DNA from: Candidatus Latescibacterota bacterium
GTDB lineage: Bacteria; JAAXHH01
Length of the DNA: 64,000 bases
Assembly (NCBI GenBank): GCA_022821085.1
Contig: JAJEEG010000006.1
Location: 268,405 to 332,404, forward strand
Direction of reading: 5' to 3'
In this document: in pieces, positions 17,132-51,268 of the stretch
Layout: the number at the start of each line of letters is the position of its first letter
Numbering within the stretch: the stretch's first letter is position 1
Program-made: the position numbers and the translations under genes
Notes under the pieces: model-generated
The model's database searches: none
Seen by the model: only the letters and a program-made list of their open reading frames with translations
What the model was told of the DNA's origin: nothing

Positions 17132-17521
17132 TCAGTCCTGCCTCTGCTTCAAAGCCCTGACTTCTCCTTCAACGCGGCCAAGCCTTTTGTTCAAGTCATG
17201 TATATCCGCCCTGACAACCTTGAATTCCTCCTGCATTTCGGTCCTGAGCGACTGCATTTCATCCCTGACGGCCTTGAATTCCTCCTGCATTTCAGCCCTG
17301 ACGGCCTTGAATTCCTCCTGCATTTCAGCCCTGAACGACCGCATTTCAGTCCTGAACGACCTGAATTCCTCCTGCATTTCGGTGCGCAGTTCACCGGTGG
17401 ATTGACCCATAAAGGTGATGACCGCAATGACAAGAATACCGACGGCAACCAGCACCTGGACAAATGCGATCAGTTTCTGGTACATTTCGTTCCCCGCTTT
17501 CGTTTTGCGTTCATGATTCAT
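17132..17521 (-). CDS. small N-terminal-TM protein with 11-residue repeats and C-terminal DLNKRLGRVEG motif (paralog family)
   Basis: 129 aa. TM helix (LIAFVQVLVAVGILVIAVITF). Repeats of the form EMQEEFKAVRA encoded by 33-bp DNA tandem repeats. Confidence 0.65.
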   Translation of the reverse strand: MNHERKTKAGNEMYQKLIAFVQVLVAVGILVIAVITFMGQSTGELRTEMQEEFRSFRTEMRSFRAEMQEEFKAVRAEMQEEFKAVRDEMQSLRTEMQEEFKVVRADIHDLNKRLGRVEGEVRALKQRQD

Positions 17522-17533
17522 TTCTGTTGATCA

Positions 17534-17800
17534 ATACTATTGAAGACATTGGACCGCATCCGGCTCGCCGCACCCGGCTCGTCGCACCCCATTCGACCCT
17601 TCTAAATTGTAACTGTCGGAGCCCATTCTGAAATCCTCGGACTTTTTTGTGTTTTGTTAAGGTTCCGCCAGTTAAGGTTCCGCCAGTTGAAGTTCCGCCC
17701 GGATAAGGCACACAGCAGCCTCTTTCTGCTCGATGGCCTCACCAATTGGGAATTGCCTTATACGCCTCATCCTGTGGTAATTGGCTAATGGCATTGTAAC
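17534..17800. repeat. ~270-bp conserved element, copy A (upstream of minus-strand gene 17132..17521); contains a 15-bp x3 tandem repeat
   Basis: About 80% identity to 19960-20225 (aagacattggac..catccggctcg..gtaactgtcggag..ctgaaatcct.ggacttttttt...gccttatacgc..catcctgtg). Tandem units agttaaggttccgcc at ~17655-17700. Confidence 0.7.
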
Positions 17801-18180
17801 GTCGTTTTGTGATGGGAGAACGCTGACAAGCCCTACGCTAACAGACGCGTCGCGGTCCAGCGCGTCGCGACTCAGCGCTGCGCTGCGAGTCAGTTTAAAA
17901 ACCCTCACTCCCGTCCTTTTGCGTCAACGGCTTGACTGCCCCCTCCACGCGTCCGAGCCTTATTCTCGAACTTTTCACGAAAACACGACAGTCCCCCTTG
18001 CCTTATACCATTACTTATCAGATATTTCACAATACCTCATGACGGAGTAACCACCTCTACGGAAGTTTCTTTCGGTAAAGTAGGAAGCACTTTTACAGCC
18101 AACGGCTTTCCCATCCATATAAAAATCGTCAAATGGGCGTGTAGTATAACCCCAGTGTTTTTCCATCCGAAAGGATTGCC

Positions 18181-19419
18181 ATGACACGCTTGCGTCTCAG
18201 ACTCGTGTGCATTGCGTTACTGCCGGTATCCCTGTTCGTGCTTTCCACCTGCGGCAAGGATAGTTCCACCGCCCCAGGCGCTCCAACACCCCCTGCCCCG
18301 GTACCCGCCAGCATCGAAATCACCCCGGCGTCCGCTACGTTGAACGCCATAGATCAAACCGTTGAGTTGGCTCCAGTAGTACTTGACGAGAATGGTGCTG
18401 AGATCGCCGATGCTTCGGTTACGTGGACGAGTGGCGCCGTGGACGTTGCGACGGTTTCCGATCAAGGCCTGGTCACGGCGGTCAACAACGGGTCCGCGGT
18501 GATCACGGCACAGTCGGACAGTCTTTCGGCATCGGCGAGTATCACCGTCTCGCAGGTGCCGGTCCGTATCGTAATCGAGTTCCCGACCACGGAATCGGGC
18601 CAGGTCATACTGACGGACATGGGCGAGTTAAAACTGGTAGCCACGGTACAGGATAGAAACGGACATCCGGTGGCCGGAGCGGAAGTGACATGGTCGAGCA
18701 GCGATGAATCCGTAGCGACCGTCAACGATCAAGGAGTGGTAAACGAGGTCTCGAGCGGGTTTACTCAGATCACAGCCCGATCGGGAGACCTGTCAGACTC
18801 GATTAATTATGGTGTCTCGTTAAGTGTTGCACTGGGCAGGTTGTATATGGCGACAAATGGTCCGGATTGGACACAAAACACGAACTGGTTGACTGATAAA
18901 CCGTTGGAAGAATGGCACGGTATTACGGTCGGCTTGTTTGGACAGCCTACGATACTGAACCTGAACAACAACAACCTGGGTGGCTCGATTCCGACGGATG
19001 CGGGACAATTGTATTCTCTTGGAGAACTGAATCTGGGATCCAATCGGATTTCGGGCGAGATTCCCGCAACGATAGGAAAGCTGGAATTTCTCGGCAAACT
19101 GAACCTGAGCGACAACCAGTTGTCAGGAGAAATACCCGCCGAGTTGGGACGACTTAAAGAACTGGAGGTTCTGGCACTCGACAGGAACGAGTTGACCGGT
19201 GAGCTTCCGGCCGAACTGGGTAACCTTGCCAACCTCCGGGAATTACACCTGCAGGAAAATGAATCATTGAACGGACCTCTGCCTGATTCGTTTACGAATC
19301 TCGAGCTTCAAACCCTGGACCTGGATGGAACAGCGCTTTGCGTGCCGGCCAACTCGGAGTTCCAGGCCTGGATCGAAGGGATTGATAACGTAACCGCCGC
19401 CACGTGCCCTGATCCGTAG
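18181..19419 (+). CDS. Big_2 + LRR surface lipoprotein (paralog family)
   Basis: Lipobox LSTCGKDS. Two Big_2 domains. LRRs with the conserved C-cap GTALCVP...FQAWI...C. Confidence 0.8.
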   Translation: MTRLRLRLVCIALLPVSLFVLSTCGKDSSTAPGAPTPPAPVPASIEITPASATLNAIDQTVELAPVVLDENGAEIADASVTWTSGAVDVATVSDQGLVTAVNNGSAVITAQSDSLSASASITVSQVPVRIVIEFPTTESGQVILTDMGELKLVATVQDRNGHPVAGAEVTWSSSDESVATVNDQGVVNEVSSGFTQITARSGDLSDSINYGVSLSVALGRLYMATNGPDWTQNTNWLTDKPLEEWHGITVGLFGQPTILNLNNNNLGGSIPTDAGQLYSLGELNLGSNRISGEIPATIGKLEFLGKLNLSDNQLSGEIPAELGRLKELEVLALDRNELTGELPAELGNLANLRELHLQENESLNGPLPDSFTNLELQTLDLDGTALCVPANSEFQAWIEGIDNVTAATCPDP

Positions 19420-19730: not shown

Positions 19731-19946
19731 TTACTCCCGCCCCTGCGTCAATGCCCTGACTTCCCCCTCCACGCGTCCAAGCCTTTTGTTCATGTCCTGC
19801 ATTTCGATGCGCAACTCACTGGTGGATTGCCCCATCCAGGTGATGACGGCGATGACGAGCATACCGATGGCAACCAGCGACTGGACAAATACGATCAGTT
19901 TCTGATACATTTTATTCCCTGCTTTCGTTTCGCGTACATGATCCAT
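19731..19946 (-). CDS. short paralog of the N-terminal-TM / RLGRVEG small protein family
   Basis: 71 aa. Same N-terminus (KAGNKMYQKLIVFVQSLVAIGMLVIAVITWMGQST) and DMNKRLGRVEGEVRAL tail. No internal repeats. Confidence 0.55.
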   Translation of the reverse strand: MDHVRETKAGNKMYQKLIVFVQSLVAIGMLVIAVITWMGQSTSELRIEMQDMNKRLGRVEGEVRALTQGRE

Positions 19947-19959
19947 TACTGTTTAAGAC

Positions 19960-20225
19960 ATTGGACTACATCCGGCTCGTCGCATCCGGTTTATCGCATC
20001 CCAATCAGTCGTTCCTAATCGTAACTGTCGGAGTCCAATCTGAAATCCTTGGACTTTTTTTCGTTTAGTTGCAGGTCCCGCCAGTCGAGGCCCCACACGG
20101 ATTACCGCACACAGAGTCCTCTTTTCGGTCGATAGCGTCACTAAATGAGATTTGCCTAATACGCTGCATCCTGTGTTTATTGGCTAAGGTCACTTTATGC
20201 AACCCAGGCACCCCCGGACCACCTG
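19960..20225. repeat. ~270-bp conserved element, copy B (between minus-strand gene 19731..19946 and the thiolase gene)
   Basis: See copy A. This copy has a single unit where copy A has the 15-bp triplication. Confidence 0.7.
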
Positions 20226-21465: not shown

Positions 21466-21753
21466 TTACCTGAACAATCTTACCACTATGGCCACGACGC
21501 CTATCAGTGTAGGAATCCCCAGGGTGAGAATGACTGTGAGTATGTAGGCTTTGGTAGGTACATGTTTCAATGTCTCTTCCATCTTCACCACGGAATCTCT
21601 GAGCGCATCTACTTTCTCCGCAGTGTTGTTCGTAGACACTTCCAGCCGGTCGAGCCTGAAATCCCTTGGTCGATTCCCATTACCGCTTCCACTGCTCGAA
21701 CCGCTGCCTTCTCCAGCGGGTTCGCCGGTTAATTCGCGATTGGGCAAAGTCAT
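21466..21753 (-). CDS. hypothetical tail-anchored (C-terminal TM) small protein
   Basis: 95 aa. Gly/Ser-rich N-terminus, helical middle, C-terminal TM (AYILTVILTLGIPTLIGVVAIVV). SD agagagg upstream. Confidence 0.45.
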   Translation of the reverse strand: MTLPNRELTGEPAGEGSGSSSGSGNGNRPRDFRLDRLEVSTNNTAEKVDALRDSVVKMEETLKHVPTKAYILTVILTLGIPTLIGVVAIVVRLFR

Positions 21754-21765: not shown

Positions 21766-21990
21766 CTACTCGAGCAACGACCCGATCAGCGGGATGACGA
21801 CGCACGCCAGCACGACGCCAAGCATCCATTTCATCAGTTTAATGTCGCTCTGCATCAGTTCGATGTCATTCTGCATGGAGGACAGTTTCCGCTCGAAGTC
21901 CGCGATTTCTTCGGCGGCTTCGCTGGCGGCTGCTTCAGGAGTACCAGCGGCTACGAGTGCGTCATACGTCTTGGAAAGCATGACAGGCAT
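21766..21990 (-). CDS. hypothetical tail-anchored (C-terminal TM) small protein
   Basis: 74 aa. Acidic/Ala-rich helix and C-terminal TM (WMLGVVLACVVIPLIGSLL). SD aaggatgg upstream. Forms a tandem pair with 21466..21753. Confidence 0.45.
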   Translation of the reverse strand: MPVMLSKTYDALVAAGTPEAAASEAAEEIADFERKLSSMQNDIELMQSDIKLMKWMLGVVLACVVIPLIGSLLE

Positions 21991-22191
21991 GATCCATCCT
22001 TTTCTGTCTACGAGTCGTCGTACTATGCGCAGGTACGCTGCACGCGTCCTGCCCGGCCCTTATCTATAATCGTCGGAAGCCGGGACGAGTTTCTCGTATG
22101 GACGATGTCTTTTATTGCTTTGGGAGAGATAAAAGACTAAAGGAGTGCTGGTCAGACCAGAGGAGAGGGGGCCGCCAACTCAGAACCCGCC

Positions 22192-25943: not shown

Positions 25944-27398
25944 ATGCATTACTTCATAGTAGTACTGATTGCGTTCGCTCTCAGTATGTATGGATGCGAA
26001 GGTAAGACGGGTCCGGCGGGTCCGACCGGTGCCGCAGGCGCCGCAGGTCCGGCAGGTCCGGCTGGCCCGCAGGGTTCGACTGGTCCGGCAGGTCCGGCAG
26101 GTCCGGCAGGCCCCCAGGGTCCGGCTGGTGCTGATGGTGCCGATGGTGCCGCAGGTCCGGCAGGTCCGGCAGGTCCGGCAGGTCCGGCAGGTCCGGCAGG
26201 TCCGCAAGGTGAGAAGGGCGACACCGGCGAGCAGGGTCCGGCGGGTGCAGGCGCCGATCCGGGTGCTATCCAGGACATCGTTGATGGCGTCATCGGAACT
26301 GGTGTCCTGGCGGACATTCACCACATCCTGCTGTTGAAGGATGGTGAAACAGATCCTAAAAAAGGTATGGCGATAGATGTTGCAGGCGTGGCAGTTGGCG
26401 CCGAGATCGCCAGCGTGAACGTTGGCGTACTTGTAGGGGCATCCACATCTTATGTGGCCAAGGTTGCGACCGTCAGTGGACAGCCGATTCCCGCTACGCT
26501 TACCTGGACATCCGACGACGAGGAAGTAGCCTCGGTGGATGACGGTACGATTACAGGTAATAGAAGGGGATCAGCGACGGTAACCATGGCCGTAGATGGT
26601 CGTGGCATTGAAGTTGATTTCAAGGTAACCGTCCACGACGTTGTCAAGGGTATCATCGCTATTGCTGCCAGTGATACCAGGCTTGCAGTGGGTGATGAGG
26701 TTACAGTTAACGCTACTGCCTATGATGCCGCACAGACCGATGCTGCGGGCGCCGAAGGTAACGAGGTTCCCAATATAACCTTTACCTGGATGAGCTCCAA
26801 CGAAGCCGTGGCAACCGTGGATGAAGATGGCGTGGTGACTGCCAAGGGCGCCGGAAGTGCTGATATTACGGCCCACGTAGGCGACGTTAAGAGTAACAAG
26901 GTCGGAGTCACTGTATTCGACGTTCTGACTGTCGAACGCAGGATACGTGTAACCAACCTTCCCATCTCAGGGACGTATATCGCTGTCGGAGATACGCTTA
27001 TTTCTGACAGCAGCGTAGTTGCAGATGGATCTGAATCTGGTAGCGTCGGCGCTATCAATGTGGTTGTCGAGCAGTTCGATCCGACTTCTGGTGCAAGTGG
27101 AGCTTGGGCAGCTGTTACTGGCACTGATACTATGGTGAAGTACACAAGTCTGGATACAGACGTGATTACTTTTGCCGAAACCACCTCCAATACTGATGCC
27201 ACTCCCTATATGGGTACGGCTAGTATTGCTACCGATGGCAGCGGTAACGCCAATATGCCTGCGTTTACACACGATAATAGCGCAAACGGTAAGGTGGCAG
27301 GTCGAGGCACTGCCAGAATTGAGATTTCCACCCAATATGCTGATTCGCGCTATATTGAGATCATAGTATCAATTCCCTCTACCCACAAGGCCCCCTAA
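25944..27398 (+). CDS. lipoprotein with collagen-like stalk followed by Big_2 Ig-like domains
   Basis: Lipobox YGCEG followed immediately by about 95 residues of G-X-Y repeats ([10 protein letters not shown]...), then Big_2-type domains. Contains a perfect 9-bp tandem repeat. Confidence 0.8.
26151..26204. repeat. perfect 9-bp tandem repeat (gcaggtccg x6) encoding (AGP)n inside the collagen-like gene
   Basis: Six identical head-to-tail units, with three more related units at 26086-26112. Confidence 0.9.
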
Positions 27399-27787: not shown

Positions 27788-28711
27788 GTGCTACGCCACC
27801 TCGCCAGGCTGTTACTCTTTCTTGTATTTCTAGGCTGTGAGGGACCGACGGGTCCGGAGGGTCCGGCCGGACCGGCGGGGCAGGCCGGCGCCGCCGGTCC
27901 GCAGGGTATCCAGGGTCCGGCGGGACCGCAGGGCGAACCCGGGGAGACGCTGGACTGGTCGGACGTAATCGAGACCGAGAATCTGGGGGACGCGGTCTAC
28001 GCGATCGGGGTGCAGATCCAGGGGAAGAACTACGTGCTGGGTTCGGGTTTCGTCGCACACTTCACAAATGCCGTCTGGACCAATGCCCGCGTCGTTCAGG
28101 CCGTCCTCATTTCGACCACGTTTATCGACCACCTCAACCCGCGGGCCTTTGCCGTCAAGTCGGGCACGGAGATTGGCGGCGCCGACACGTACTGGCTGGA
28201 GAACTACTGGGTTCATCCCGACTACGACGGCACAGCCGGCTCGCCCGACGCGGCCCTGCTCATCATCGACGCGAACCTGACGGACCTGCCGTTCTTCCTG
28301 CCCAGGGACCAGGCCCAGGGCCTGCGCGCGGGACAGCCCATCGGTACGATCGGGTTTCCGGAGGAAGAAACGGGCGAGTCCGTCACGGTCCCCATCGCCA
28401 CGTTCAATGGCGGCACGATCGGCGCGCTGAGGCCCTTCGAAGACGCGGTCCCCACGCCGGCGAACAGCCGGATCATCCAGCATGACCTGGACAATTCCGG
28501 CCGAACGAGCGGCAGTCTCATTTTTGATCACTCGGGATACATCGTCGGGATGAATTTCGCCGGGATCTTCCGGGTCGCCTACGACGCCCGGACCGGGGAG
28601 CCCACGCGCGTTCCGTCGGGAAACCCCGGCCTCGCCGTCCGCGTGGACGAGCTCTGGCGCCTCTACGACCTGGCAAGGGGGAGTGGGCGCCAGGTCGTGC
28701 TACTTCCCTAG
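27788..28711 (+). CDS. lipoprotein with collagen-like stalk and trypsin-like (S1/Trypsin_2) domain, possibly non-canonical
   Basis: Lipobox LGCEG followed by about 35 residues of G-X-Y repeats. Then GSGFV...TNARVV (Arg where the catalytic His is expected), DAALLIID (Asp box) and GRTSGSLIF (Ser box). Confidence 0.65.
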   Translation: MLRHLARLLLFLVFLGCEGPTGPEGPAGPAGQAGAAGPQGIQGPAGPQGEPGETLDWSDVIETENLGDAVYAIGVQIQGKNYVLGSGFVAHFTNAVWTNARVVQAVLISTTFIDHLNPRAFAVKSGTEIGGADTYWLENYWVHPDYDGTAGSPDAALLIIDANLTDLPFFLPRDQAQGLRAGQPIGTIGFPEEETGESVTVPIATFNGGTIGALRPFEDAVPTPANSRIIQHDLDNSGRTSGSLIFDHSGYIVGMNFAGIFRVAYDARTGEPTRVPSGNPGLAVRVDELWRLYDLARGSGRQVVLLP

Positions 28712-29069
28712 CAGGACTTTCCGCACCTAGCCTTCAGATCCTACCCAGCCTTCAAACCCTTCCCGGATAGATGGAACGGCGAGGCGGAACTTTCGTAACA
28801 CAGGATTCCGGCCTGATCGCTAACGATCCGGAAGCGCTGGCGGTATGTGTTTGTGCCTTCCTCCCCTCCCATGCTCAAATAACCACATTTTAACCCCATA
28901 ACATCACGCTTAAATTATATGTCAAGGTATTGAAACAGATGATACCTGGCTATGGGTGATTTTATGTTGTAAATCCAAATATGATGCATACTTTGATCAT
29001 TCCACTTTGCAGAATGTTAGTCGAAAACTCGAATGTAATGCCGACCACACCGGTCCCGGGGAACGTCCT

Positions 29070-30968
29070 ATGAATATCCGTCCTTTGAAGCGTCTGTACA
29101 TAACGACCTTCTCAAGTTTCAGTACTGTATTTTTGATCACGGCCTGTCTGGTCCTGGTCACCTGCGGCAAGGACAGCACGACGAAGCCTGCGGCGCCTGA
29201 ACCGCCTCCGCCCGCAACACCCGCGCCGCCGCCCCCGGCGCCCGTACCTACCCGGATTACGATCACCCCTTCGTCCGTTTCGCTCAACTCCGTTGGCCAG
29301 ACCATGCCCTTGACGGCCAAGGTCTTCGATCAGAACAACGCGGTGCTCGGCAGTGCAACAGTTTCGTGGTCCAGCAGCGACGAGGGCGTGGCGACGGTCG
29401 GCAGCCGGGGGTTGGTCACCGCCGTCTCGAACGGTACGGCGACCATCACGGCGAGTTCAGGCATCGCTTCTGCGACCGCGGCCGTCACGGTGATGCAGTC
29501 CGCAAGCCGCATCGTCCTTGAGTCGTCCTCGGCAACGCTTGTGTCCCTCGGGGAAACCGTGCAACTCACCGCCACTGTGCAGGATGCGAACGGTCAAGCA
29601 GTAGACGGCGCGGCTGTAACCTGGTCGAGCAGCGACGAGGGCGTGGCGACAGTCGGCGCCCAGGGCTTGGTCACGGCAGTCTCGAACGGCAGCGCCACGA
29701 TCACGGCCAGATCGGGCAGCGTTTCTGCGACCGCGGCCGTCACGGTCATGCAAACCGCCCACGGAATCGTCCTTGAACCGCAGATGGCGACGCTCACCAG
29801 GGCCGGCGAGACCGTGCAGCTGGCCGCGGCCGTACTGGACCTGAACGAACAGCCCGTGGACGGCGCCACCGTCTCATGGGCCAGTAGCGACCCGGGCGTC
29901 GCGGCGGTCGACGATGATGGACTGGTGACGGCGGTTGCGAACGGCAGCGCCGGGATCACCGCGTCTTACGGCGACATATCCGCCACGGCCCGGATCGAAG
30001 TGGAGATCGCCGACCCGGGCGATAGAGACGCGTTGATTGCGCTGTATGTCGCCCTTGACGGACCGAACTGGACGTATAATACCAACTGGCTGTCCGACCT
30101 GCCTCTGGGTGAGTGGTATGGCGTGGGCACCGACGACACTGGAAGAGTCACCTGGCTGAGTCTCGCCTTCAACGAACTCAGCGGCGCCATTCCTTCGGAA
30201 CTGGGCAATCTGGCCAAACTGGAGGAACTCAATCTTAGCCAGAATCGGTTGTCGTGCGTGATTCCACCTGAATTGGGGAACCTGACCAACCTGTACGGGC
30301 TCTACCTTTACTCCATTCCGATCTTGCCGGCGGTCTTTCCGCCGGAGTGGGATCCTGTCCCCGACCCGGCTTGCCGCATCCCTGCCGAGTTGGGGAACCT
30401 GACCAACCTGGAGGAACTGAGGCTTGGCCTCAGAACGCTGTCTGGCCGCATTCCTGCCGAGTTGGGGAACCTGACCAACCTGCAGGTACTGGATCTCCGC
30501 TTCAACGCATTGTCCGGCGGCGTGCCGCCGGAACTGGGGAAGCTGCCCAACCTGTATTCGTTGAATCTCGGTTTCAACGCGTTATCTGGCAGCATCCCTG
30601 CCGAGTTGGGGAATCTGGCCAATCTGATGGAACTGAACCTGACCCTCAACGCGTTGTCGGGCAGCATCCCGCCTGAGTTGGGCAACCTGGCCGGCCTGGA
30701 AGTGCTGGAACTTGGCTTAAATGCGTTGTCCGGCAGTGTCCCGCCTGAGTTGGGAAACCTCTCCGAACTCACATATCTTTCTTTGGTTTACAATGAGGAC
30801 CTGTCGGGTCCGCTGCCCGCCACGTTCACCAACCTCAACTACCTGGAGGGGTTGGATCTGTCTTATACCGGCTTGTGCGTGCCGCCGGAACCTGCGTTCC
30901 GGGCGTGGCTGGAGCGGTTTCAGGCTGCCGATCAAGTGGTGTACTGCGGAGGGATGCAGGGCGGTTAA
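29070..30968 (+). CDS. Big_2 + LRR surface lipoprotein (paralog family)
   Basis: Start placed at the ATG (29070) that gives the signal peptide/lipobox LVTCGKDS. Pro-rich linker. Four Big_2 domains (VPTRITI...). About 9 LRRs. C-cap GLCVPPEPAFRAWLERF...C. Confidence 0.75.
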   Translation: MNIRPLKRLYITTFSSFSTVFLITACLVLVTCGKDSTTKPAAPEPPPPATPAPPPPAPVPTRITITPSSVSLNSVGQTMPLTAKVFDQNNAVLGSATVSWSSSDEGVATVGSRGLVTAVSNGTATITASSGIASATAAVTVMQSASRIVLESSSATLVSLGETVQLTATVQDANGQAVDGAAVTWSSSDEGVATVGAQGLVTAVSNGSATITARSGSVSATAAVTVMQTAHGIVLEPQMATLTRAGETVQLAAAVLDLNEQPVDGATVSWASSDPGVAAVDDDGLVTAVANGSAGITASYGDISATARIEVEIADPGDRDALIALYVALDGPNWTYNTNWLSDLPLGEWYGVGTDDTGRVTWLSLAFNELSGAIPSELGNLAKLEELNLSQNRLSCVIPPELGNLTNLYGLYLYSIPILPAVFPPEWDPVPDPACRIPAELGNLTNLEELRLGLRTLSGRIPAELGNLTNLQVLDLRFNALSGGVPPELGKLPNLYSLNLGFNALSGSIPAELGNLANLMELNLTLNALSGSIPPELGNLAGLEVLELGLNALSGSVPPELGNLSELTYLSLVYNEDLSGPLPATFTNLNYLEGLDLSYTGLCVPPEPAFRAWLERFQAADQVVYCGGMQGG

Positions 30969-32155: not shown

Positions 32156-32896
32156 TCAGTGATTCAACACGTTCGAGCTGAACCGCAGTTCCGTAAGTCC
32201 ATCCCGGCCTATCGTAACATCGCCTACCATTCTGTACAGTCCGGACTCGACCGGTGTGTATACGCACAGCTTGTTCTCGCCACGCACCGTGCCGGGTAGG
32301 GTCGTCCAGCCGAATTCATCCTGCCGCTGCCATCTCGAATGGTGAAACCGGTAGCTTGCCGCTTCGTATCCCGTCCCGTACACGGTTTGCGGATCGACGT
32401 CGATGCAGGAGCCGGCCCCCTGCGCGGACAACTCGAAGAACTCCACACGGCCCGCACTGACTACCAGCCTCTGCAATGGATTATAACTTTCGTCGTCGGG
32501 ATGCGCCGGCGCGTTCACCGTTACGGAGATGGTGATCGTCGCGCTGTTCCCGCCTGGGTCCGTCGCCCTGATGGAAACCGTGGCGGTTCCCTCGGCCAAC
32601 GGGTCGATCGTCAGCACCGGACCGGACATAGTGGCCATTACGACCGACGCGTCGCTCGATTCCGCCGAGTAGGTCAGGGGCCGCTCCTCGGGGTCCTTGA
32701 AGGCCGTCGCGAAACTGATCGTAAGGCGCTCCCGCTCCGCGGTCAGCGTCTGCGCTTCGAAGGTCTCGACCACCGTGGGCGCGAAATCATCCGGCGTTCT
32801 CGGCTGGACACTGCTGTCGCCCCCGCATCCCATAGCCAGGGAAACCAGCAGGACAGGTATCATTATTGTTCTCATGGCTTTCTCGCTCCTTGCCAA
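32156..32896 (-). CDS. lipoprotein with Ig-like (Big/cadherin-like) domain
   Basis: Lipobox LAMGCGGD. Beta-sandwich-like segment (TATVSIRATDPGGNSATITISVTV). Its 3' end is duplicated as a remnant at 30965-31062. Confidence 0.6.
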   Translation of the reverse strand: MARSEKAMRTIMIPVLLVSLAMGCGGDSSVQPRTPDDFAPTVVETFEAQTLTAERERLTISFATAFKDPEERPLTYSAESSDASVVMATMSGPVLTIDPLAEGTATVSIRATDPGGNSATITISVTVNAPAHPDDESYNPLQRLVVSAGRVEFFELSAQGAGSCIDVDPQTVYGTGYEAASYRFHHSRWQRQDEFGWTTLPGTVRGENKLCVYTPVESGLYRMVGDVTIGRDGLTELRFSSNVLNH

Positions 32897-33138
32897 CCTG
32901 CTAAGGTAGAATCTTAAGCGGCGACGAACAGTGTATGGCTAATCCCTACTGTTGAGTATTTCTCTGATGACCTGTATAATGATAGATATCTCGTCGGTAG
33001 CAATGCTGGATTTCCGAATGTAATCGTCCGGGGTCATGGGAACAAGTTGGAACCGCCAACCGTCTTGGAAGGTGATCCTCGACCGTCCCGCTTGAATCAG
33101 TCGTAAGGCAGATAACCTTTCTCGCATCGAGGTGTAGC

Positions 33139-36840: not shown

Positions 36841-36937
36841 AAAAAAGAAAAACTCCGAGTATTGCCTGGTGATCTCCGACTAAACACTTTAGAGGTCGGT
36901 TGTTCATGCTTTACCGCTATCACCAGGAGATCGGAAA
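36841..36937 (+). promoter_or_regulatory. conserved structured leader (nested inverted repeats overlapping the SD), copy 1
   Basis: Outer stem cctggtgat (36865-36873) pairs with atcaccagg (36919-36927). Inner hairpin ccgac-taaa-cac-ttta-gag-gtcgg. The 3' arm overlaps the AGG of the aggag SD. About 90% identical to 38388-38485. Confidence 0.5.
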
Positions 36938-37177
36938 ATGACCGCAATGTCCCGCGAGAACTGGGCCTTTGGCGCGCAGATCGTATCGGCCATCGGCATT
37001 CTCACAATCGCAGTCGTCACCTTCATCAATCAATCCAACAAGGAATTCCGGGATGAGATTAGGACCGAATTGGCCGGGTTGCGGACCGAACTCACCTCGA
37101 TTCGTTCCGAAATCCACGACATGAATACACGACTCGGTCGCGTCGAAGGCTACCTGCGCGTATCTGTAAACGAATAA
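36938..37177 (+). CDS. small N-terminal-TM protein with HDMNTRLGRVEG motif (paralog family)
   Basis: 79 aa. TM (IVSAIGILTIAVVTF). Helical repeats (EFRDEIRTELAGLRTELTSIRSEI). Confidence 0.65.
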   Translation: MTAMSRENWAFGAQIVSAIGILTIAVVTFINQSNKEFRDEIRTELAGLRTELTSIRSEIHDMNTRLGRVEGYLRVSVNE

Positions 37178-38387: not shown

Positions 38388-38485
38388 CTAACTAAAAAAA
38401 CCACGAGTATCGCCTGGTGATCTCCGACTAAACACTTTAGAGGTCGGTTGTTCATGCTTTACCGCTATCACCAGGAGGTCGGAAG
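38388..38485 (+). promoter_or_regulatory. conserved structured leader, copy 2
   Basis: Same nested inverted repeats as 36841-36937, located immediately upstream of the 38486 start. Confidence 0.5.
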
Positions 38486-38737
38486 ATGACCGGAATGTCC
38501 CGCGAAAACTGGACCTTTGGCGCGCAGATCGTGTCGGCCATAGGCATCCTCGTAATCGCAGTCGTCACTTTCATCAATTCATCCAACAAGGAATTCCGGG
38601 ATGAGGTTCGGGCCGAGTTGACCGGATTGCGGACGGAAATGCAATCCGAATTCGCCTCCATACGTTCAGAGATGCACGATATGAACACGCGCCTCGGTCG
38701 CGTCGAAGGATACCTGCGTGTGTCCGTAAACGAATAG
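38486..38737 (+). CDS. small N-terminal-TM protein with HDMNTRLGRVEG motif (paralog family)
   Basis: 83 aa, about 85% identical to 36938..37177. Confidence 0.65.
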   Translation: MTGMSRENWTFGAQIVSAIGILVIAVVTFINSSNKEFRDEVRAELTGLRTEMQSEFASIRSEMHDMNTRLGRVEGYLRVSVNE

Positions 38738-38825: not shown

Positions 38826-39089
38826 ATGAGCGAACACAGCAAGAGAGATTGGTCATGGTCTCCGGTTATTACCATGGCCGGAATGCATATCATGATGACG
38901 GGTATCATCGTTACGATAATGCTCTTCTTAAATGGTGATCTTAGTAACAGGATGCTATCGGTAGAAGAGAAATTGAGAGACTTGATCGAGGTTGTATCGG
39001 GCATGCAGACCGAAATCGGTGCAATTAAACAGGAAGTGGATGTAATTAAACAGGAAGTGGATGAAATTAAACGGGAAGTGTCCAAATAG
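38826..39089 (+). CDS. small N-terminal-TM protein with heptad/11-mer repeats (divergent member of the family)
   Basis: 87 aa. TM (MTGIIVTIMLFL). C-terminal repeats IKQEVDVIKQEVDEIKREV. Confidence 0.5.
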   Translation: MSEHSKRDWSWSPVITMAGMHIMMTGIIVTIMLFLNGDLSNRMLSVEEKLRDLIEVVSGMQTEIGAIKQEVDVIKQEVDEIKREVSK

Positions 39090-39114: not shown

Positions 39115-39519
39115 ATGGAAATCGCTCAACTGATCGTATCCCCGGCCATCTTGTTGGGAGCGTTCATTTTCTTCTGGAAAGAATCCAAGGCGGGTCGCAT
39201 GGAACTCGAGACCCGGCTGGTACAGCGCATGGATCGCATGGAGGACAGGCTGGAAGCGCGTTTTGTCGAGTCGGAAGCGCGCTTTGTCGCGCTGGAGGAC
39301 AAGATGGATAGACGCTTTATCGCGACTGATGCGCGCATTGTTGCGCTGGAAAACAAGATGGATAAACGCTTTGTCTCGTTGGAGGACAAGATGGATAAGC
39401 GCTTTGTCGCTCTGGAGGACAAGATGAACGAACGCATCGTCTCACTGGAGGACAAGATGGACGTTCGGGTTGGCCGACTGGAAGGGGTGCTGATTACTAC
39501 GCAGCAGAAGGCGTCTTGA
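39115..39519 (+). CDS. small N-terminal-TM protein with 11-residue repeats (ALEDKMDKRFV x6) and VGRLEGV tail
   Basis: ATG at 39115 is preceded by agggag. TM (IVSPAILLGAFIFFW). Repeats encoded by 33-bp DNA periodicity. Confidence 0.6.
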   Translation: MEIAQLIVSPAILLGAFIFFWKESKAGRMELETRLVQRMDRMEDRLEARFVESEARFVALEDKMDRRFIATDARIVALENKMDKRFVSLEDKMDKRFVALEDKMNERIVSLEDKMDVRVGRLEGVLITTQQKAS

Positions 39520-39527: not shown

Positions 39528-41957
39528 CTACGGTCCGGAACAGAATTGCACACCGGAACTACTTCGTATACCGCTGATCCACGCCCGGAAATCCGCGGTC
39601 GGGGGTACACACAGGCCGGTGTTTTGCAGCGTCAGATCCTGCATGAACTCGAGCCCGGAAAACGAATCCGGCAATGGTCCGGATAGTCCGGGATTATCGG
39701 CGAGCCAGAGTAACCTGAGGCCGGTGAGTTGTCCCAGTTCGTCCGGGATCGTTCCGGTCAGCCGGTTATCGTCGAAGGTCAGCGACAACAGGTTGTTGAG
39801 TTTACCAAATTCCGGTGGGATTGTCCCGGACAGCCGGTTGTCCTTGAACCAGAGCTCCCTCAAGTTCGAAAGCTGTGCCAGTTCCGGCGGGATGTTCCCG
39901 GTCAGTTCGTTCCGGTCGAAATATAGCAATTCGAGCTTGGATAGCTGTCCCAGTTCCGGCGGAATGTTCCCGGTCAATATGTTCCGATTGAAATCCAGGA
40001 AGGTGAGCTCGGAGAGTTGAGCCAATTCCGGTGGTATGGGTCCCGTCAATCGATTTTTGGCAAGCGACAGATGGGTGAGTGCGGTGAGTTGGGCCAATTC
40101 CAACGGGATATCCCCCGTCAGCCTGTTGCTGCTGAGCCCCAGATGAGTAAGGTCAACGAGTTGCCCCAATTCCGGCGGAATGATTCCCGTCAGGTTGTTG
40201 CCTGTAAGCGTCAGGCGTTCAAGGGCGGTCAATTGTCCCAGTTCCGGCGGGATGTTCCCCGTCAACTCGTTTCCGGCAAGAGCAAGGACTGTCAGGTTCA
40301 CCAACTGCCCGATCTCCGGTGGAATATCTCCCGACAACTGGCTGTTGAGTATACTCAGCCAGGTAAGGTTGGTCAGTTGCCCGATTTCCGGCGGAATGTT
40401 CCCCGTCAGATCGGTGCTGTCGAGACTCAGAGTACCCAATTGGGTCAGTTGCCCCAGTTCCGGCGGGATCCCGCCCGTCAACCCGTTGCCGGACTGCCCC
40501 AGCCAGATGAGGTTGGCGAGCAGCCCGAATTCCGGTGGCAGGTTACCCGTCAGATCGTTGTACCTGAGGTCCAGCACGGCAAGCGAGGCGAGATAGCACA
40601 GTTCAGCGGGAAGGGGGCCCTGGAGATTGTTGCGCGGCAGTTGCAGGCGCACCACCTCTCCGGATGGAGTTGCGATGACGCCATGCCAGTCGCTAAGAGG
40701 TGCATCGCTTAACCAGTTGTCGTTGTTGGTCCATTCGTCCCCGTTCGTGCTGCGGTACAGGATCGCCAGGGCCTCGCGGTCCGGAACCGCTTCCTTCACA
40801 GTGACGGTCGCCACGGAAGTGGTCTCGCCTGAACGGGCGGTGATCTCCACGGTGCCGCCCGCAACGGCGGTCACCAGGCCCTGTTCATCGACCGTTGCGA
40901 TCGTTTCGTCACTGCTTGCCCAGGTCACGTCCGCGCCGTCTATCCTGTGCCCCATATGATCGAGTACCGTGGCCGTGAGCTGTGCCGTATCGCCGGCCGC
41001 CGCCAGGATCGTTTCCACCGGATCGACTACGATGCTGGCGGGCGACTGCATGACGGTAACGTCGCTGCTTACCGTTAGATCGCCTGAGGTGGCCGTGATG
41101 GTTGCGGCGCCGTTGGCCACCGCGGTCACGAGACCGTCAGTGCTCACCGTCGCCACGGAAGCGTCGCTGCTTTGCCAGGTCACGCCGGCCCCTTCGATGG
41201 CCCGGTTATTCGGATCGACCACCATTGCGATGAATTGGACGGTTTCGCCAAAGGCCGTGAGGGTGGCCTCAGGCGGATCGATCACGATACCGGTGGGCGT
41301 CTGCATGACCCTGACGGTGACGCCTTGCTCGGTACTGCCCGACCGGGCGGTTATCCTGGTTGTGCCGTTGCCTGTCGAGGTAACCAGTCCGGTAGTGCTC
41401 ACGCGTGCCACTTCCGTATCGCTGCTCCGCCAGGTCACGTTGGCCCCTTCGATCGTCTGCCCGTTGCGGTCCTGTACTGTTGCGGTGAGCTGCACCGTCT
41501 CCCCGATGGCCGTCAAGGTGGCCTCCGTGGGTTCGATGGTGATCCTGCCGGCGGTCTGTACCACTTTTATTTCAACATCTCGCGATACGCCGCCGGACCT
41601 CGCCGTAATGCGGATTATCCCGTACGCGACCGCCGTCGCCAGGCCGCCCGAACTGACCGACACGATCCTGGGGTCCGCACTGGTCCAGGTTACGGAAGCG
41701 CCTGTCATTACAGCGTTATTCTGATCGAAGACCTGGGCCGTCAGTTGGACCGTCTGGCCGATCGCGTTCAGCGTCGCCGAGGCCGGCGTGATGGTAATGC
41801 GGGTCGCAACCGGAGTCGGCGGCGGGGGCGGGGGCTGCGTCGGGGCCGGTGGCGACGGCGCGGGAGCGGTGGCGCTGTCCTTTCCGCAAGCGGCGATCAG
41901 CGCAATCAGCGTGCCGAATGCGAGCGCGGTAAAGGTATTCAACAGGATTCGTGACAC
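39528..41957 (-). CDS. Big_2 + LRR surface lipoprotein (paralog family)
   Basis: Lipobox LIAACGKDS and a Pro-rich linker. Five Big_2 domains (VATRITI...). About 12 LRRs. C-cap GLCVPPTADFRAWISGI...C. Confidence 0.8.
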   Translation of the reverse strand: MSRILLNTFTALAFGTLIALIAACGKDSATAPAPSPPAPTQPPPPPPTPVATRITITPASATLNAIGQTVQLTAQVFDQNNAVMTGASVTWTSADPRIVSVSSGGLATAVAYGIIRITARSGGVSRDVEIKVVQTAGRITIEPTEATLTAIGETVQLTATVQDRNGQTIEGANVTWRSSDTEVARVSTTGLVTSTGNGTTRITARSGSTEQGVTVRVMQTPTGIVIDPPEATLTAFGETVQFIAMVVDPNNRAIEGAGVTWQSSDASVATVSTDGLVTAVANGAATITATSGDLTVSSDVTVMQSPASIVVDPVETILAAAGDTAQLTATVLDHMGHRIDGADVTWASSDETIATVDEQGLVTAVAGGTVEITARSGETTSVATVTVKEAVPDREALAILYRSTNGDEWTNNDNWLSDAPLSDWHGVIATPSGEVVRLQLPRNNLQGPLPAELCYLASLAVLDLRYNDLTGNLPPEFGLLANLIWLGQSGNGLTGGIPPELGQLTQLGTLSLDSTDLTGNIPPEIGQLTNLTWLSILNSQLSGDIPPEIGQLVNLTVLALAGNELTGNIPPELGQLTALERLTLTGNNLTGIIPPELGQLVDLTHLGLSSNRLTGDIPLELAQLTALTHLSLAKNRLTGPIPPELAQLSELTFLDFNRNILTGNIPPELGQLSKLELLYFDRNELTGNIPPELAQLSNLRELWFKDNRLSGTIPPEFGKLNNLLSLTFDDNRLTGTIPDELGQLTGLRLLWLADNPGLSGPLPDSFSGLEFMQDLTLQNTGLCVPPTADFRAWISGIRSSSGVQFCSGP

Positions 41958-48815: not shown

Positions 48816-48875
48816 AGTACCGGCCGCCGCCACGCGGTAAGCCGGCGATTCAAGGGGACGGCCCCGCCGGCACCC

Positions 48876-50678
48876 CTACCTGATGATCTCGCCCAGTATG
48901 CGCCCGTCGCGGTTCGACGGCAGGGTGATCCGCAGCAGATTGCAGATCGTCGGCGTGATATCGGCCGCGTCGATGGAGTGACGGTAGTGGCCGGGTGCGA
49001 TCCACGGACCGTGGAACATGACCGGTATGTGCGTATCGTAGTCGTGGGGCCATCCGTGGGAAGTGCCCACCGTGGCCGACCCGTACTCGCCCAGCAGGAG
49101 GTAGAAGGGCGTGGCGATGAGCATGATGTCGCCGCTGTTTTCGGTATGGAAGCTGTGATAGACCGTCTTCGTGAGGTTCGATTCCGGCAACAGCTTCCGT
49201 TCGATGCGGTGGCGCGTATAGGCCCGCAATACGGCCGGATGGGTCACGACGGCGGCGGCCGCCGTCTCTTCCACCTCTGCCCGGCTCAGGCCGCGGCTGT
49301 CGATGGCCTCCCAGTTCAGGTACACGCCCGATTCCGCCACGTGCAGGACCCAGTCGTCTTCCCCGTGCAGCCCGTCCAGGGCCTCCTCTATCAGGGCCGT
49401 CAGCGGCTCGGGACCGGCCCGTCCGGCCTCCAGGCCCCTGAGCGCGAGCTGCTCCGGCAATTCCATGGCGCCGTGGTCGGCCGTCAGGGCCAGGAGGGTG
49501 TGGTCGCGCCCGACCCGCTCGTCGAGGAAGGCGAAGAAATCCGCAAGTTGCCGGTCCGTACGCAAGGTGGCGTCCATGGATTCCTGGCTGAAGGGCCCGA
49601 AATCGTGGCCGATGTAGTCATTGGCCGAGAGACAGATGACCAGGACGTCCGGGATGTCGTCCTGACCCAGTTCTTCCTCGATGATCGCCTGCCGGGCGAA
49701 TTCCAGCTGGTAGTCTGTGGACCAGGGCGTGTGCTTGAAGGCGTTCCAGTACCGGGGCCCCGGCTCCTCCAGGCCGCCTTTCGTCACGTGGGGGAAGACG
49801 ATCCCGCTGTTCCGGTTGTCCTCCTCGCCCTCGCGGACGTCTTCGCCTGCCCGTTCAAGGTAGAGTTCCTCCGGCAGCAGGCGTTCCCATGTGCGGCCGA
49901 AGGACTGGTCCGGGATTTTCCGCTCGTTGAAGCGCTTGACCCAGTCGGGCACGTCGTCCATGAAGAAACTGCTCGACGTGATCCGGCCCAGGGACGCCTC
50001 GAACCAGTATGGCGCCCCCAGTTTCCCGGCGGAGATCATGGCGCTGTAGTCCTTGAGCGATATCGTGATGGCCTTGCCCCGGTAGCGTGTGGCCATGCGC
50101 AGTTCGTCCGCCAGGGAAGAGCCAACCAGTTCCCGCGTGGATGCGCGGCCGGTCGCGGTGGGCCACAATCCGAGGATGTGGCTGTCCGGATCCACCAGCG
50201 ACGGCCGAAACACCCCCGTGGACCGGCTGTACCACGCGTTGTTGACCATCCCCGTCTTGTGGGCGTAGGTGCCAGAGGTGACCACGCTGTGGCCCGGTGA
50301 AGTGGAGGCATGCACATGCGTGAAACGGGCGTCCTGCATCCACGCGCCGCGGTCCATGAACCGGCGGAATCCGTCCTCCACGAAGAGGTCGTCGAACCGC
50401 TGCAGGTAGTCGTGGCGGAACTGGTCGATGATGATCAGCACCGCGAGCCGGGGCGGGTCGGTCGGCGCGGGCTCCGACGACATCTGATCGGCCGGGTCGG
50501 CCTGCGCGGGTTCCGACGGCGGTGCAGACGGGGTGGCCCGCGCGGGCGATTCGGACGGTCCGGGCGGTCCGGCTGCTTCCTGGAGAACCGGTTCGCCGGT
50601 GTGCGCCGCTGAAGCAGGCGTAATGATCAAAAGCAACGACAGGATCAAACCCGTCCTGGTGAGTCCGGATATGGACAT
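48876..50678 (-). CDS. alkaline phosphatase superfamily protein (PafA / nucleotide pyrophosphatase-phosphodiesterase-like)
   Basis: Signal peptide and Pro-rich linker. VLIIIDQFRHDYL metal-site motif. HDFGP...TADHG. Confidence 0.7.
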   Translation of the reverse strand: MSISGLTRTGLILSLLLIITPASAAHTGEPVLQEAAGPPGPSESPARATPSAPPSEPAQADPADQMSSEPAPTDPPRLAVLIIIDQFRHDYLQRFDDLFVEDGFRRFMDRGAWMQDARFTHVHASTSPGHSVVTSGTYAHKTGMVNNAWYSRSTGVFRPSLVDPDSHILGLWPTATGRASTRELVGSSLADELRMATRYRGKAITISLKDYSAMISAGKLGAPYWFEASLGRITSSSFFMDDVPDWVKRFNERKIPDQSFGRTWERLLPEELYLERAGEDVREGEEDNRNSGIVFPHVTKGGLEEPGPRYWNAFKHTPWSTDYQLEFARQAIIEEELGQDDIPDVLVICLSANDYIGHDFGPFSQESMDATLRTDRQLADFFAFLDERVGRDHTLLALTADHGAMELPEQLALRGLEAGRAGPEPLTALIEEALDGLHGEDDWVLHVAESGVYLNWEAIDSRGLSRAEVEETAAAAVVTHPAVLRAYTRHRIERKLLPESNLTKTVYHSFHTENSGDIMLIATPFYLLLGEYGSATVGTSHGWPHDYDTHIPVMFHGPWIAPGHYRHSIDAADITPTICNLLRITLPSNRDGRILGEIIR

Positions 50679-50938
50679 GATCGGCCCTTTCAGAGTTCGG
50701 ATGTGTTACAGTAGTTTTTTTGTTACGAGGTTACAGCGGACGCAAATGACTAACACTTTTAACAGGGGTGCTTAGCGCTATTGCCGGTTCCGGGTCCCGT
50801 TCGACGCATTTGCCGTCGCCTTCATGGCCACGCTCAGGGTCGTTCATGACGGCCCGTCAGCAGGCTGATTTTAAGATAGTGAACTATAGAGCGTTGTCAA
50901 CGACGCGCCGTTAGCTGGAAAGGGGGCTGTAGAGACAA

Positions 50939-51268
50939 ATGACGGAATTCATGGTGGTTACCCAGGTGATCTGCGCGGCGGGAGTCTTGTTGCTCGGCAT
51001 AGTGACCTTAACGGGACGGATCACGAAGTCTCTGCGCGAGGAGATGCGCGCGGACCGGGAGACCATCCGCGAAGAGATGAGACAAGACCGTGAGAATGTC
51101 TTTGGTGAGATCAAATCACTTCGTGAGGAGATGCGTGCGGACCGGGAAGTCATCTTCGGTGAGATCAAATCGCTTCGTAGGGAGATGCACGACATGAACG
51201 GCCGGCTGGGCCGAGTAGAAGGTCATATGAGAATCTCTGGATCGAACAGTTCAAAGGAGTTGCAATGA
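50939..51268 (+). CDS. small N-terminal-TM protein with 11-residue repeats and MHDMNGRLGRVEG motif (paralog family)
   Basis: 109 aa. TM (VVTQVICAAGVLLLGIVTL). Repeats LREEMRADRE...FGEIKSLREEMRADRE. Confidence 0.65.
   Translation: MTEFMVVTQVICAAGVLLLGIVTLTGRITKSLREEMRADRETIREEMRQDRENVFGEIKSLREEMRADREVIFGEIKSLRREMHDMNGRLGRVEGHMRISGSNSSKELQ

Follow-up and report, generated by a model that had tools for sequence, protein, structure and literature searches.

Introduction

Several kinds of bacterial inner-membrane protein join one transmembrane (TM) helix to a cytoplasmic coiled coil, among them subunit b of the F-type ATP synthase, YhcB/ZapG and the ElaB/YqjD/YgaM proteins; subunit b is oriented with its N-terminus out and its C-terminus in (N-out/C-in) and has hendecad character, and ElaB and YqjD are small, paralogous members of a stationary-phase regulon. 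The Bdr proteins of Borrelia, which are small and anchored in the inner membrane, exist as many paralogues with a helical domain of variable short tandem repeats and with shared DNA upstream of their genes. In the DUF1640/CCDC90-like proteins, an N-terminal head is followed by a stalk, opened by the beta-layer motif [aliphatic]-A-T-K-[polar]-[DE], and by a C-terminal TM helix (PMC4786415). Here, a 64,000-nucleotide stretch of DNA assigned to a Candidatus Latescibacterota bacterium (contig JAJEEG010000006.1, positions 268,405 to 332,404; hereafter the window) is analyzed, in which seven small open reading frames (ORFs), M1 to M7 in order of position, encode proteins with one N-terminal TM helix and a charged helical rod that mostly ends in a conserved RLGRVEG cap. 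The reading favored here, with a confidence that stops somewhat short of even, is that they are co-regulated single-pass inner-membrane proteins whose rods, of variable length, are joined in parallel by the cap, the probable state being a trimer and the probable side the cytoplasmic one.

A Lineage-Expanded Family of Genes

An ORF listing of the window contained all seven ORFs at the coordinates and on the strands given in an earlier note, which had been made from the letters of this DNA without database searches. A profile of five core members matched 565 proteins at E ≤ 1e-3, and the source-given names among the 120 matches listed were all “hypothetical protein” from metagenome-assembled genomes (MAGs) of Gemmatimonadetes/Gemmatimonadota. 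A scan of one genome per species, covering 185,579 species, with the pattern N[TKG]RLGRVEG yielded 103 related stretches; the locus analyses described below cover 80 of these, from 21 MAGs that are labeled Gemmatimonadetes/Gemmatimonadota, “Candidatus Latescibacterota” or plain “bacterium.” The “Candidatus Latescibacterota” label on these MAGs presumably arose by mis-binning, and the names of the MAGs (IRC1, APA, SB0665, Plut), as names only, suggest sponge and coral sources. About 130 family ORFs lie in the 80 loci, frequently in tandem arrays of two to five, and 117 copies were counted in 20 genomes within the retrieved loci, with at least 13 in one genome, in agreement with the expansion by duplication that had been proposed from the window. 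The 101 distinct proteins in these loci are 59–144 amino acids (aa) long, database relatives reaching 160 aa, and fall by N-terminal sequence into seven subfamilies: A (M3, M4), B (M1, M2), C (M7), D (M6) and E, F and G, the last three of which are absent from the window.

The repeat DNA at M1 and M6 opens long ORFs on both strands, as might be expected if the ORFs were artefacts of tandem DNA repeats and not genes. That explanation is excluded, because the dN/dS of orthologues in the annotated frame is 0.08–0.17 in six of the seven length classes and 0.31 in the seventh; in addition, the TM helix and tail are kept in M2, M3 and M4, which have no DNA repeats, and homologues number in the hundreds. 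The earlier note had allowed that the ORFs might prove to have no conservation beyond this contig; the 565 relatives and the dN/dS range of 0.08–0.31 show the opposite. Judged from their sequences, the seven ORFs are, far beyond chance, real genes of an unnamed, uncharacterized, lineage-expanded family.

The C-Terminal Cap

M1, M2, M3, M4 and M7 end exactly in the motif that had been reported, (H/Q)D(M/L)N(K/T/G)RLGRVEG(E/Y/H)(V/L/M)R. M6 ends in a variant, DKMDVRVGRLEGVLI, which contains RVGRLE, and M5 has no such tail. Among the 101 distinct proteins the tail reads E-7, [MI]-6, H-5, D-4, M-3, N-2, [GT]-1, R0, L1, G2, R3, V4, E5, G6, x, L8, [RK]9, and N-2, G+6 and L+8, positions left free by the search pattern, are 93–100% conserved. 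The proteins end 9–18 residues past RLGRVE.

Hydrophobic residues occupy positions -13, -10, -6, -3, +1, +4 and +8 of the tail, a continuous 3–4 heptad spacing that places R0 at heptad position g, L1 at a, V4 at d and E5 at e. A trimerization motif of coiled coils has been described as Arg(g)-h(a)-x-x-h(d)-Glu(e), in which h is hydrophobic, and is found in some dimers too (PMC3653964). Arg-h-x-x-h-Glu, with I, L, V or M at a and L, I or V at d, occurs as RLGRVE in five window members and as RVGRLE in M6, and the tail also has the heptad register of the motif, with Arg at g, the hydrophobic residues at a and d and Glu at e. Some members repeat the cap in seven-residue steps (NTRLDRV NTRMDGV NTRLGRV). 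Since the cap, two heptads long, fits R-h-x-x-h-E in register, a parallel trimer is regarded as the likeliest state.

The Transmembrane Helix and the Rod

Each of the seven proteins has one N-terminal hydrophobic segment, with a mean Kyte-Doolittle hydropathy of 1.8–2.75 over 19 residues, as expected from the single TM helix assigned to it before. In all subfamilies an N-terminal tail (N-tail) of 2–16 residues precedes a TM helix that bears a Gln close to its N-terminal end, within segments such as AQIVSAIG, VQALAAVG, TQVICAAG, AQLLITPG and IQGTTAVG. The rod contains 26–31% large hydrophobic residues, 38–45% K/R/D/E and 0.5% Pro. AlphaFold2 (monomer) modeled M4 as a single helix of residues 4–81 and M1 as two helices, residues 3–41 (TM) and 46–128 (83 residues), with a GQST hinge between them.

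The repeats, which the earlier note had given as 11-residue throughout the family, are in fact a mixture of 7- and 11-residue units. The M1 rod combines EMQEEFKAVRA (11 residues) with EMRSFRA and EMQSLRT (7 residues); M6 is built of 11-mers, M7 of 18-residue (11+7) units, M5 of heptads and M3 of heptad-like units only, M2 has no repeat block, and the rod of subfamily E consists mostly of heptads (EIMSVRR, EVAAVRD, EMKAEIR). Likewise, the 33-bp DNA tandem repeats that were thought to encode the repeats throughout are found only in M1 (17252–17334) and M6 (39346–39461); the other DNA repeats are of 21 and 87 bp in M1, 21 bp in M5, 54 and 66 bp in M6 and 54 bp in M7 (direct repeat D20), and the remaining members have none. 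Under the published definitions of periodicity for hydrophobic repeats (PMC4786415), the hydrophobic period is 3.49 in M5 and 3.54–3.62 in M1, M3, M4, M6 and M7, values that lie between 7/2 and 11/3 and approach both 18/5 and the free-helix value of 3.63. A period near 18/5 suggests a nearly untwisted bundle. The number of repeats varies among orthologues, units of 7 and 11 residues having been gained and lost, which indicates that rod length is readily changed while both ends stay fixed.

A Shared Promoter-Like Element

A bipartite element was found upstream of genes of all subfamilies and consists of an A/T-rich tract, aCGAGaTT, 13 unspecified nucleotides (N13) and CTCCGACTaa. The gap from CGAG to GAC is 17–18 nt in 48 of 50 distinct sites, and the element lies mostly 82–130 nt, and up to 280 nt, before the ATG. 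Of 104 upstream regions, 57 contain the strict pattern, for which the expectation is 0.12 occurrences per 300 bp. A position weight matrix (PWM) at a score of at least 18 gave 86 matches in 1.4 Mb (both strands), against 2.3 in shuffled sequence, and 61 of the 86 precede assigned genes from all seven subfamilies, on the coding strand and at a distance of no more than 400 nt. Most of the others are found before family members left unassigned or before further small repeat proteins of TM/coiled-coil type (KIDRVET-KVDRVET, five copies of RFEAVDR, SLDDKMDDRLQ, and TRDDLKAFA units with a C-terminal TM helix), and a few precede other genes or no clear ORF. The DNA flanking the element is not conserved between subfamilies, and the element is missing on the coding strand at two loci of distant relatives, L081 and L082.

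Two conserved boxes at a fixed spacing, upstream on the coding strand, are the features of a promoter read by an alternative sigma factor, and the fixed gap of 17–18 nt suggests either such a factor (ECF- or sigma-28-like) or one activator. We infer from conservation that a single factor acts at the element, either an alternative sigma factor, with the element as its promoter, or an activator, and that the genes behind it form a regulon of small membrane-anchored coiled-coil proteins. If it is a common promoter, the transcript would start a few bases (5–10 nt) past CCGACTAA, and a separate copy would drive each gene or tandem array. Neither M5 nor M6 has an element of its own; no terminator-like site was found on the + strand between M4 and M6, so that these two genes are probably co-transcribed with M4. 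A sigma-70 promoter and terminator scan around M3–M6 gave nothing above shuffled expectation, and a scan of the whole window at Rfam gathering thresholds and a tRNA scan of it found nothing. We know of no described promoter or regulon from this uncultured host-associated lineage; the shared cis-element is new in this analysis, its conservation being observed and its function proposed.

The leaders behind the element have features of their own. In subfamily A, the box CTCCGAC (36874–36880 at M3) is complementary to GGTCGG(A) at 36896–36901 and 36928–36934, the first copy lying 20 nt past the box and the second between the Shine-Dalgarno sequence and the ATG; the same arrangement occurs upstream of M4. 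A hairpin in the 5′ leader that would cover the Shine-Dalgarno sequence was considered and rejected. For 12 leaders, RNAalifold returned a value of -8.5 kcal/mol, in which the covariation term was +0.17, and paired the box with the distal GGTCGG(A) copy in invariant columns, which yield no covariation evidence. Of the 11 pairs, no more than 2 show any double change. The pairing draws on the invariant CTCCGAC box, and the hairpin would have its 5′ arm ahead of the point at which the transcript presumably starts. The M1 and M2 leaders carry a 14-nt tandem repeat, CGAGCCGG(A/G)TGCG(A/G), at 17554–17589(-) and 19969–20001(-), with about 2.5 copies in the window and 4–5 copies in the subfamily-B leaders of L042 and L043.

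Topology and Proposed Assembly

In every subfamily, K+R averages 0–1.25 in the N-tail against 2.4–4.0 in the 12 residues past the TM helix, and subfamilies C, D, E and F have no K or R in the N-tail, which in them carries a net charge of -1. Under the positive-inside rule, such a bias favors an N-out/C-in orientation with a cytoplasmic rod. In the proposed assembly the rod would most likely stand on the cytoplasmic face of the inner membrane as a parallel, nearly untwisted coiled coil, and the cap and the Gln of the TM helix would act as two fixed points of association. Because the cap is common to all paralogues, mixed oligomers are possible. The element also precedes other small coiled-coil membrane proteins, from which it would follow that the whole set of rods is made together on one signal as a condition-specific membrane scaffold. 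Such a set resembles the small membrane-anchored coiled-coil proteins of general-stress and stationary-phase regulons (ElaB/YqjD, DUF948/YtxH).

Several points weigh against this assembly. The cap has Gly at positions b and f, which is unusual for a stable coiled coil. The confidence of the two AlphaFold2 models is low (mean pLDDT 65.8 and 66.9, pTM 0.28), as would be expected where a lone strand of an oligomer is modeled. The evidence on topology is weak, since acidic and basic residues alike are abundant in the rod, and subfamilies A, B and G have one K or R in the N-tail and a net negative flank past the TM helix. The element could be a transcription-factor site and not a sigma-factor promoter, and no sigma-factor domain was found among the part of the window's ORFs that was scanned against Pfam. 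The likeness to stress regulons is one of resemblance only.

Alternative Explanations

With the opposite orientation (N-in/C-out), the proteins could be periplasmic spacers or scaffolds, that is, struts of variable length or docking partners for lipoproteins or peptidoglycan, for which the trimeric Lpp ruler is the functional comparison. Subfamily B would have a basic N-tail if the longer start were used and has a net negative flank past the TM helix, M1 scores just above the cut-off of Lectin_N, a type-II-membrane stalk profile (29.5 against 28.3 bits), relatives in Acidimicrobiia end in Ala/Pro-rich extensions of a kind typical of wall-spanning segments, and some window copies adjoin Big_2-LRR lipoprotein genes. 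The K/R bias is nonetheless opposite to the one required in all seven subfamilies, four of which have an acidic N-tail with no K or R, and no Lys or other recognizable anchoring residue is present at the C-terminus. The earlier note had placed every copy beside a Big_2-LRR or collagen-like lipoprotein gene or a secreted hydrolase gene, and on this basis had proposed a periplasmic or surface scaffold or partner family. This adjacency is a local coincidence in a window rich in such genes: a Big_2/LRR relative lies within 4 kb at only 9 of the 80 loci, including the syntenic counterparts of the M1 and M4–M6 sites, and the neighbors are otherwise unrelated housekeeping genes, so that a lipoprotein or hydrolase partnership is not a property of the family. 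The neighbors differ by paralogue group (GatA/GatB, an enolase-superfamily enzyme, an E2 acyltransferase, a GFO/IDH/MocA oxidoreductase, nitrile hydratase, PhyH, DsbD), and clustering of 556 neighboring ORFs from the 80 loci gave no partner gene common across paralogue groups; the largest two of these clusters lack any Pfam domain and could consist of antisense ORFs. A periplasmic or surface location is doubtful and the partner role unsupported, and the spacer reading as a whole is unlikely.

A distinctly unlikely account is that the rods are amphipathic helices of LEA, apolipoprotein or DUF948 type, which would lie flat on the bilayer and stabilize it under stress. M1 and M6 do have 11-residue periodicity, and weak similarities exist to Apolipoprotein A1/A4/E (PF01442; best M6, 22.7 bits, E 8.8e-5), to apolipoprotein chains in the PDB (E of about 2e-3) and to DUF948 (PF06103; a subfamily-F relative, 20.7 bits, the window members having no match). 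These scores are far under the family cut-offs of 90 and 37.2 bits, however, and the Pro-punctuated 11/22-mers of the apolipoproteins are lacking in a rod with 0.5% Pro. Apolipoprotein helices also have a broad non-polar face; here a narrow hydrophobic seam takes up about 3 residues in 11 (26–31% overall). Many subfamilies have heptads only, and an invariant R-h-x-x-h-E cap in register is unexpected for a helix on a lipid surface; the analogy with apolipoproteins and LEA proteins drawn before is therefore weak. An origin as phage-derived proteins dispersed over the chromosome, of a lysis, holin-like or toxin kind (XhlA-like or type-I-toxin-like), is highly improbable. It would account for small TM proteins in many copies, which recall type I toxin loci, for the element in front of an XhlA-like gene, 5809–6063(-) (29.9 bits), and for weak PHROG matches such as that of M7 to a “hol-like” family (E 8.6e-6). 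Yet no relatives were found in 50,697 phage records, in 72,556 plasmids (tblastn) or in 2.9 million viral contigs, PADLOC gave only two marginal matches, both to M1 and neither specific, and the surroundings are all housekeeping genes; moreover, the long charged domain is under strong purifying selection, and proteins of 59–160 aa with a conserved soluble cap are unlike type I toxins.

Members and Elements in the Window

The coordinates of the family members and of the elements in the window are compiled in Table 1. The database entry P0004 is identical to M1 from Met13 on, which makes MYQKL the likely start of both M1 and M2. M2 is an M1-like copy without the entire repeat block, its DNA being homologous to that of M1 on either side of the block (D12, D13, D15). 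M1/M2 and M3/M4 are duplicates at the DNA level, with approximately 78–88% identity over the homologous segments, including 110–260 nt upstream; a 12-nt (4-residue) insertion in M4 relative to M3 makes the heptad TELTSIR into the hendecad TEMQSEFASIR. Orthologues of M3 with 79 aa are present in L011, L012, L014 and P0045 (dN/dS 0.083), those of M4 in L001–L010 are 82–96% identical to it (dN/dS 0.12), and those of M7 occur in L045, L055 and L059.

Table 1. Coordinates of family members and promoter-like elements in the window
Feature	Coordinates	Strand	Description
M1	17132..17521	-	Subfamily B; 129 aa listed; 117 aa if it starts, as is probable, at the conserved MYQKL (17485); TM helix and GQST hinge, then a rod mixing 11- and 7-residue units; tail HDLNKRLGRVEGEVR
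M2	19731..19946	-	Subfamily B; 71 aa; 59 aa with MYQKL (19910) as start; tail QDMNKRLGRVEGEVR
M3	36938..37177	+	Subfamily A; 79 aa; heptad TELTSIR; tail HDMNTRLGRVEGYLR
M4	38486..38737	+	Subfamily A; 83 aa; hendecad TEMQSEFASIR
M5	38826..39089	+	Divergent relative; 87 aa; TM helix, heptads IKQEVDV, without RLGRVEG tail
M6	39115..39519	+	Subfamily D; 134 aa; rod of ALEDKMDKRFV 11-mers; variant tail DKMDVRVGRLEGVLI
M7	50939..51268	+	Subfamily C; 109 aa; 18-residue (11+7) units; tail HDMNGRLGRVEGHMR
Truncated eighth copy	17895..18002	-	SSRIRLGRVEGAVKPLTQ; ...VFVKSSRIRLGRVEGAVKPLTQ...; six-frame motif scan, repeat family D17
Element of M1	17614..17639	-	CGAGGATT-N-CTCCGACA; PWM 27.8
Element of M2	20026..20051	-	First box degenerate, CAAG for CGAG; PWM 19.5
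Element of M3	36856..36883	+	CGAGTATT-N-CTCCGACTAA, 82 nt before ATG; PWM 31.5
Element of M4 (probably M5 and M6 too)	38404..38431	+	PWM 31.0
Element of M7	50726..50753	+	CGAGGTT-N-ATGACTAA, 213 nt before ATG; PWM 23.4; same position in L045, L055, L059
Weaker element	22069-22096	-	PWM 16.5; before 21766-21990(-) and 21466-21753(-); possible regulon, not family members
Weaker element	6156-6183	-	PWM 17.2; before XhlA-like 5809-6063(-), 84 aa, C-terminal TM helix; possible regulon member

The N-terminus of M6, MEIAQLIVSPAILLGAFIFFWK, matches that of subfamily E, whose tail is canonical; since subfamily E joins an M6-type N-terminus (MELAQLLITPGTLLTAFIFFWK) to the canonical HDMNGRLGRVEG tail, M6 is a true member. 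A subfamily D (M6-type) gene without the N-terminal TM segment, with rod and RVGRLEG tail kept, is present in L003, L004, L005 and L008 (approximately 4485–5168 in each) and is either a decaying or a soluble variant. M5 has counterparts at the corresponding position of eight further genomes, which carry between one and three IKQEVDV-type heptad units and no cap, and its N-terminus, SKRDWSWSPVI, is similar to that of subfamily A; it is treated as a divergent relative, tied to the family by architecture, synteny and this N-terminus alone. The truncated eighth copy is probably a pseudogene remnant, because it has neither a TM helix nor a start codon. A near word-for-word match to its VFVKSSRIRLGRVEGAVKPLTQ lies in L074 (OX638340.1) at 6204–6308, which is unexpected for a dead remnant.

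The genes behind the two weaker elements encode small coiled-coil proteins with the TM helix at the C-terminal end. The products of 21766–21990(-) (74 aa, with 7-residue repeats) and 21466–21753(-) (95 aa) are of this kind, and the orthologous site in L043, before the same gene as the site at 22096(-), scores 20.4. The XhlA-like protein of 5809–6063(-) scores 29.9 bits against a cut-off of 34.7, and its counterpart in L023 has an element scoring 24.7. A small ORF (...ILTMGIEIDIKLTSGYRDKIWRGWKHP...) with no Pfam match follows the XhlA-like gene in the window (5589–5861(-)) and in L023, approximately 400 nt past its element, and may form a two-gene unit with it. A further site, 33097–33124(-) (PWM 20.1), lies approximately 230 nt before the gene of a 246-aa Big_9 lipoprotein, 32156–32896(-), the only window gene behind such a site that does not encode a coiled coil; it could be a chance match or mark a further regulon member.

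The window is otherwise ordinary chromosome, with genes for a thiolase, LptD, PPK2 and aminotransferases, an acyl-CoA-synthetase-like gene and several collagen-like or Big_2-LRR lipoprotein genes. Seven genes for eukaryote-like repeat proteins lie at 9811–10713(-), 10782–14390(-), 18181–19419(+), 25944–27398(+), 27788–28711(+), 28956–30968(+) and 39528–41957(-); four are Big_2-LRR genes, among them 10782–14390(-) with a Peptidase_M66-like region, and three are collagen-like, two with a Pfam Collagen match and 27788–28711 by triplet DNA repeats only. Such a dense set is a composition typical of sponge-symbiont genomes. A gene convergent with M1, 14716–17091(+), encodes a 791-aa protein with GAF, PAS, HisKA, HATPase_c, receiver and OmpR-type DNA-binding domains, a chain from sensor to DNA in one protein; the same gene adjoins subfamily-B copies in L042, L043, L051 and L052.

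Distant Relatives and Possible Significance

A profile search of 1.84 billion representatives gave 1893 matches at E ≤ 1e-3, 130 of them at E ≤ 1e-10. The matches are of two kinds, DUF1640-type proteins with nearly the same 11-mer and a C-terminal TM helix (P0133, P0138) and proteins of the same architecture as the family, in which an acidic N-tail and a Gln-bearing TM helix are followed by E/R repeats and by a tail of the form x-R-[LM]-A-R-[IV]-E-G-x-L. The named sources of the latter are MAGs of Acidimicrobiaceae and “Candidatus Poriferisodalis sp.” (Acidimicrobiia), and two of their loci, L081 and L082, lie among housekeeping genes. Profile-profile comparison of the family with this set gave 99.9% probability from the TM helix to the tail, a figure inflated by two nearer relatives that sit in the second set.

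These relatives raise a broader proposal, that the rods form a symbiosis module shared across phyla by sponge and coral symbionts of Gemmatimonadota and Acidimicrobiia, each with many copies of one architecture (N-terminal TM helix, variable rod, R-L-[GA]-R-[VI]-E-G), in Gemmatimonadota under a dedicated and as yet undescribed sigma factor or activator, and that their lengths are reset by 7- and 11-residue repeats so that they serve as tunable envelope or membrane spacers in life within an animal host; this extension is speculative and rather unlikely as it stands. The occurrence in two phyla, as given by MAG and genus names only, makes the family a candidate marker of a sponge-symbiont lifestyle. 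Should a dedicated sigma factor prove to use the element as its promoter, the genes behind it would constitute a regulon of an uncultured, host-associated lineage, and this regulon could be tracked in holobiont metatranscriptomes. A large part of the bacterial “hypothetical proteins” consists of small coiled-coil proteins with a membrane anchor, most of them without annotation, and this family is unusually tractable among them, with a sharp cap and TM signature, natural length variants, at least 10 paralogues per genome and a clean shared cis-element that connects it with other small coiled-coil proteins of the membrane. The cap itself, as a natural and strongly conserved case of R-h-x-x-h-E with Gly at b and f, is relevant to rules of coiled-coil design.

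Comparison with Known Families

Searches of Pfam, NCBIfam, PHROGs and PADLOC gave only weak coiled-coil cross-matches, mostly below threshold, none of which explains the family; the earlier note's statement that it is not a named one thus stands, and the known family that it had allowed a profile search might reveal did not emerge. NCBIfam contained nothing near any cut-off, the PHROG matches were weak and mostly to families of unknown function, DUF1664 in Pfam reached 21 bits against a cut-off of 34.6, and a PDB profile search returned only apolipoproteins and Rcf1 (E 1e-4 to 1e-2). Literature searches on sponge Gemmatimonadota and “Poriferisodalis,” judged in part from titles and abstracts, yielded no description of the family.

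Apart from Lectin_N, the best weak Pfam relative is the DUF1640/CCDC90-like family (PF07798; MCUR1, CCDC90B and prokaryotic relatives), which M1 matched at 26.1 bits against a gathering cut-off of 33.5 and the other six not at all. Its members are likewise small and membrane-anchored, with an E/R-rich coiled-coil stalk, and the bacterial proteins P0133 and P0138 carry EFAAVRSEMAT, nearly the M1 11-mer EMQEEFKAVRA. In contrast to DUF1640, the present proteins have the TM helix within the first 45 residues in all seven, a polar C-terminus, no head and the unique RLGRVEG cap, and A-T-K of the beta-layer motif is absent from all seven sequences. XhlA (PF10779) also combines one TM helix with a short coiled coil in a small protein; the order of coil and helix is reversed in the family, as had been pointed out before, phage context is lacking, and none of the seven matches the XhlA profile at E ≤ 1. 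Lectin_N (PF03954), which M4 matched at 13.3 bits and the five members other than M1 and M4 not at all, shares a signal-anchor TM helix followed by an oligomerizing coiled-coil stalk. It is a metazoan family, however, whose stalk carries a C-type lectin domain that is absent from M1–M7, and the match of M1 reflects architecture and composition.

The family has no significant similarity to the group of subunit b, YhcB and ElaB (NCBIfam E 0.02–0.024, far under the cut-offs), the members of which lack the RLGRVEG cap, variation in repeat number and more than 10 paralogues per genome. The Bdr proteins of Borrelia differ in having a C-terminal TM helix, plasmid-borne genes and unrelated sequence in another phylum. 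The architecture is of a known general kind; new are the strictness of the cap, the promoter-like element common to the genes and the presence of the family in named symbiont lineages belonging to two phyla.

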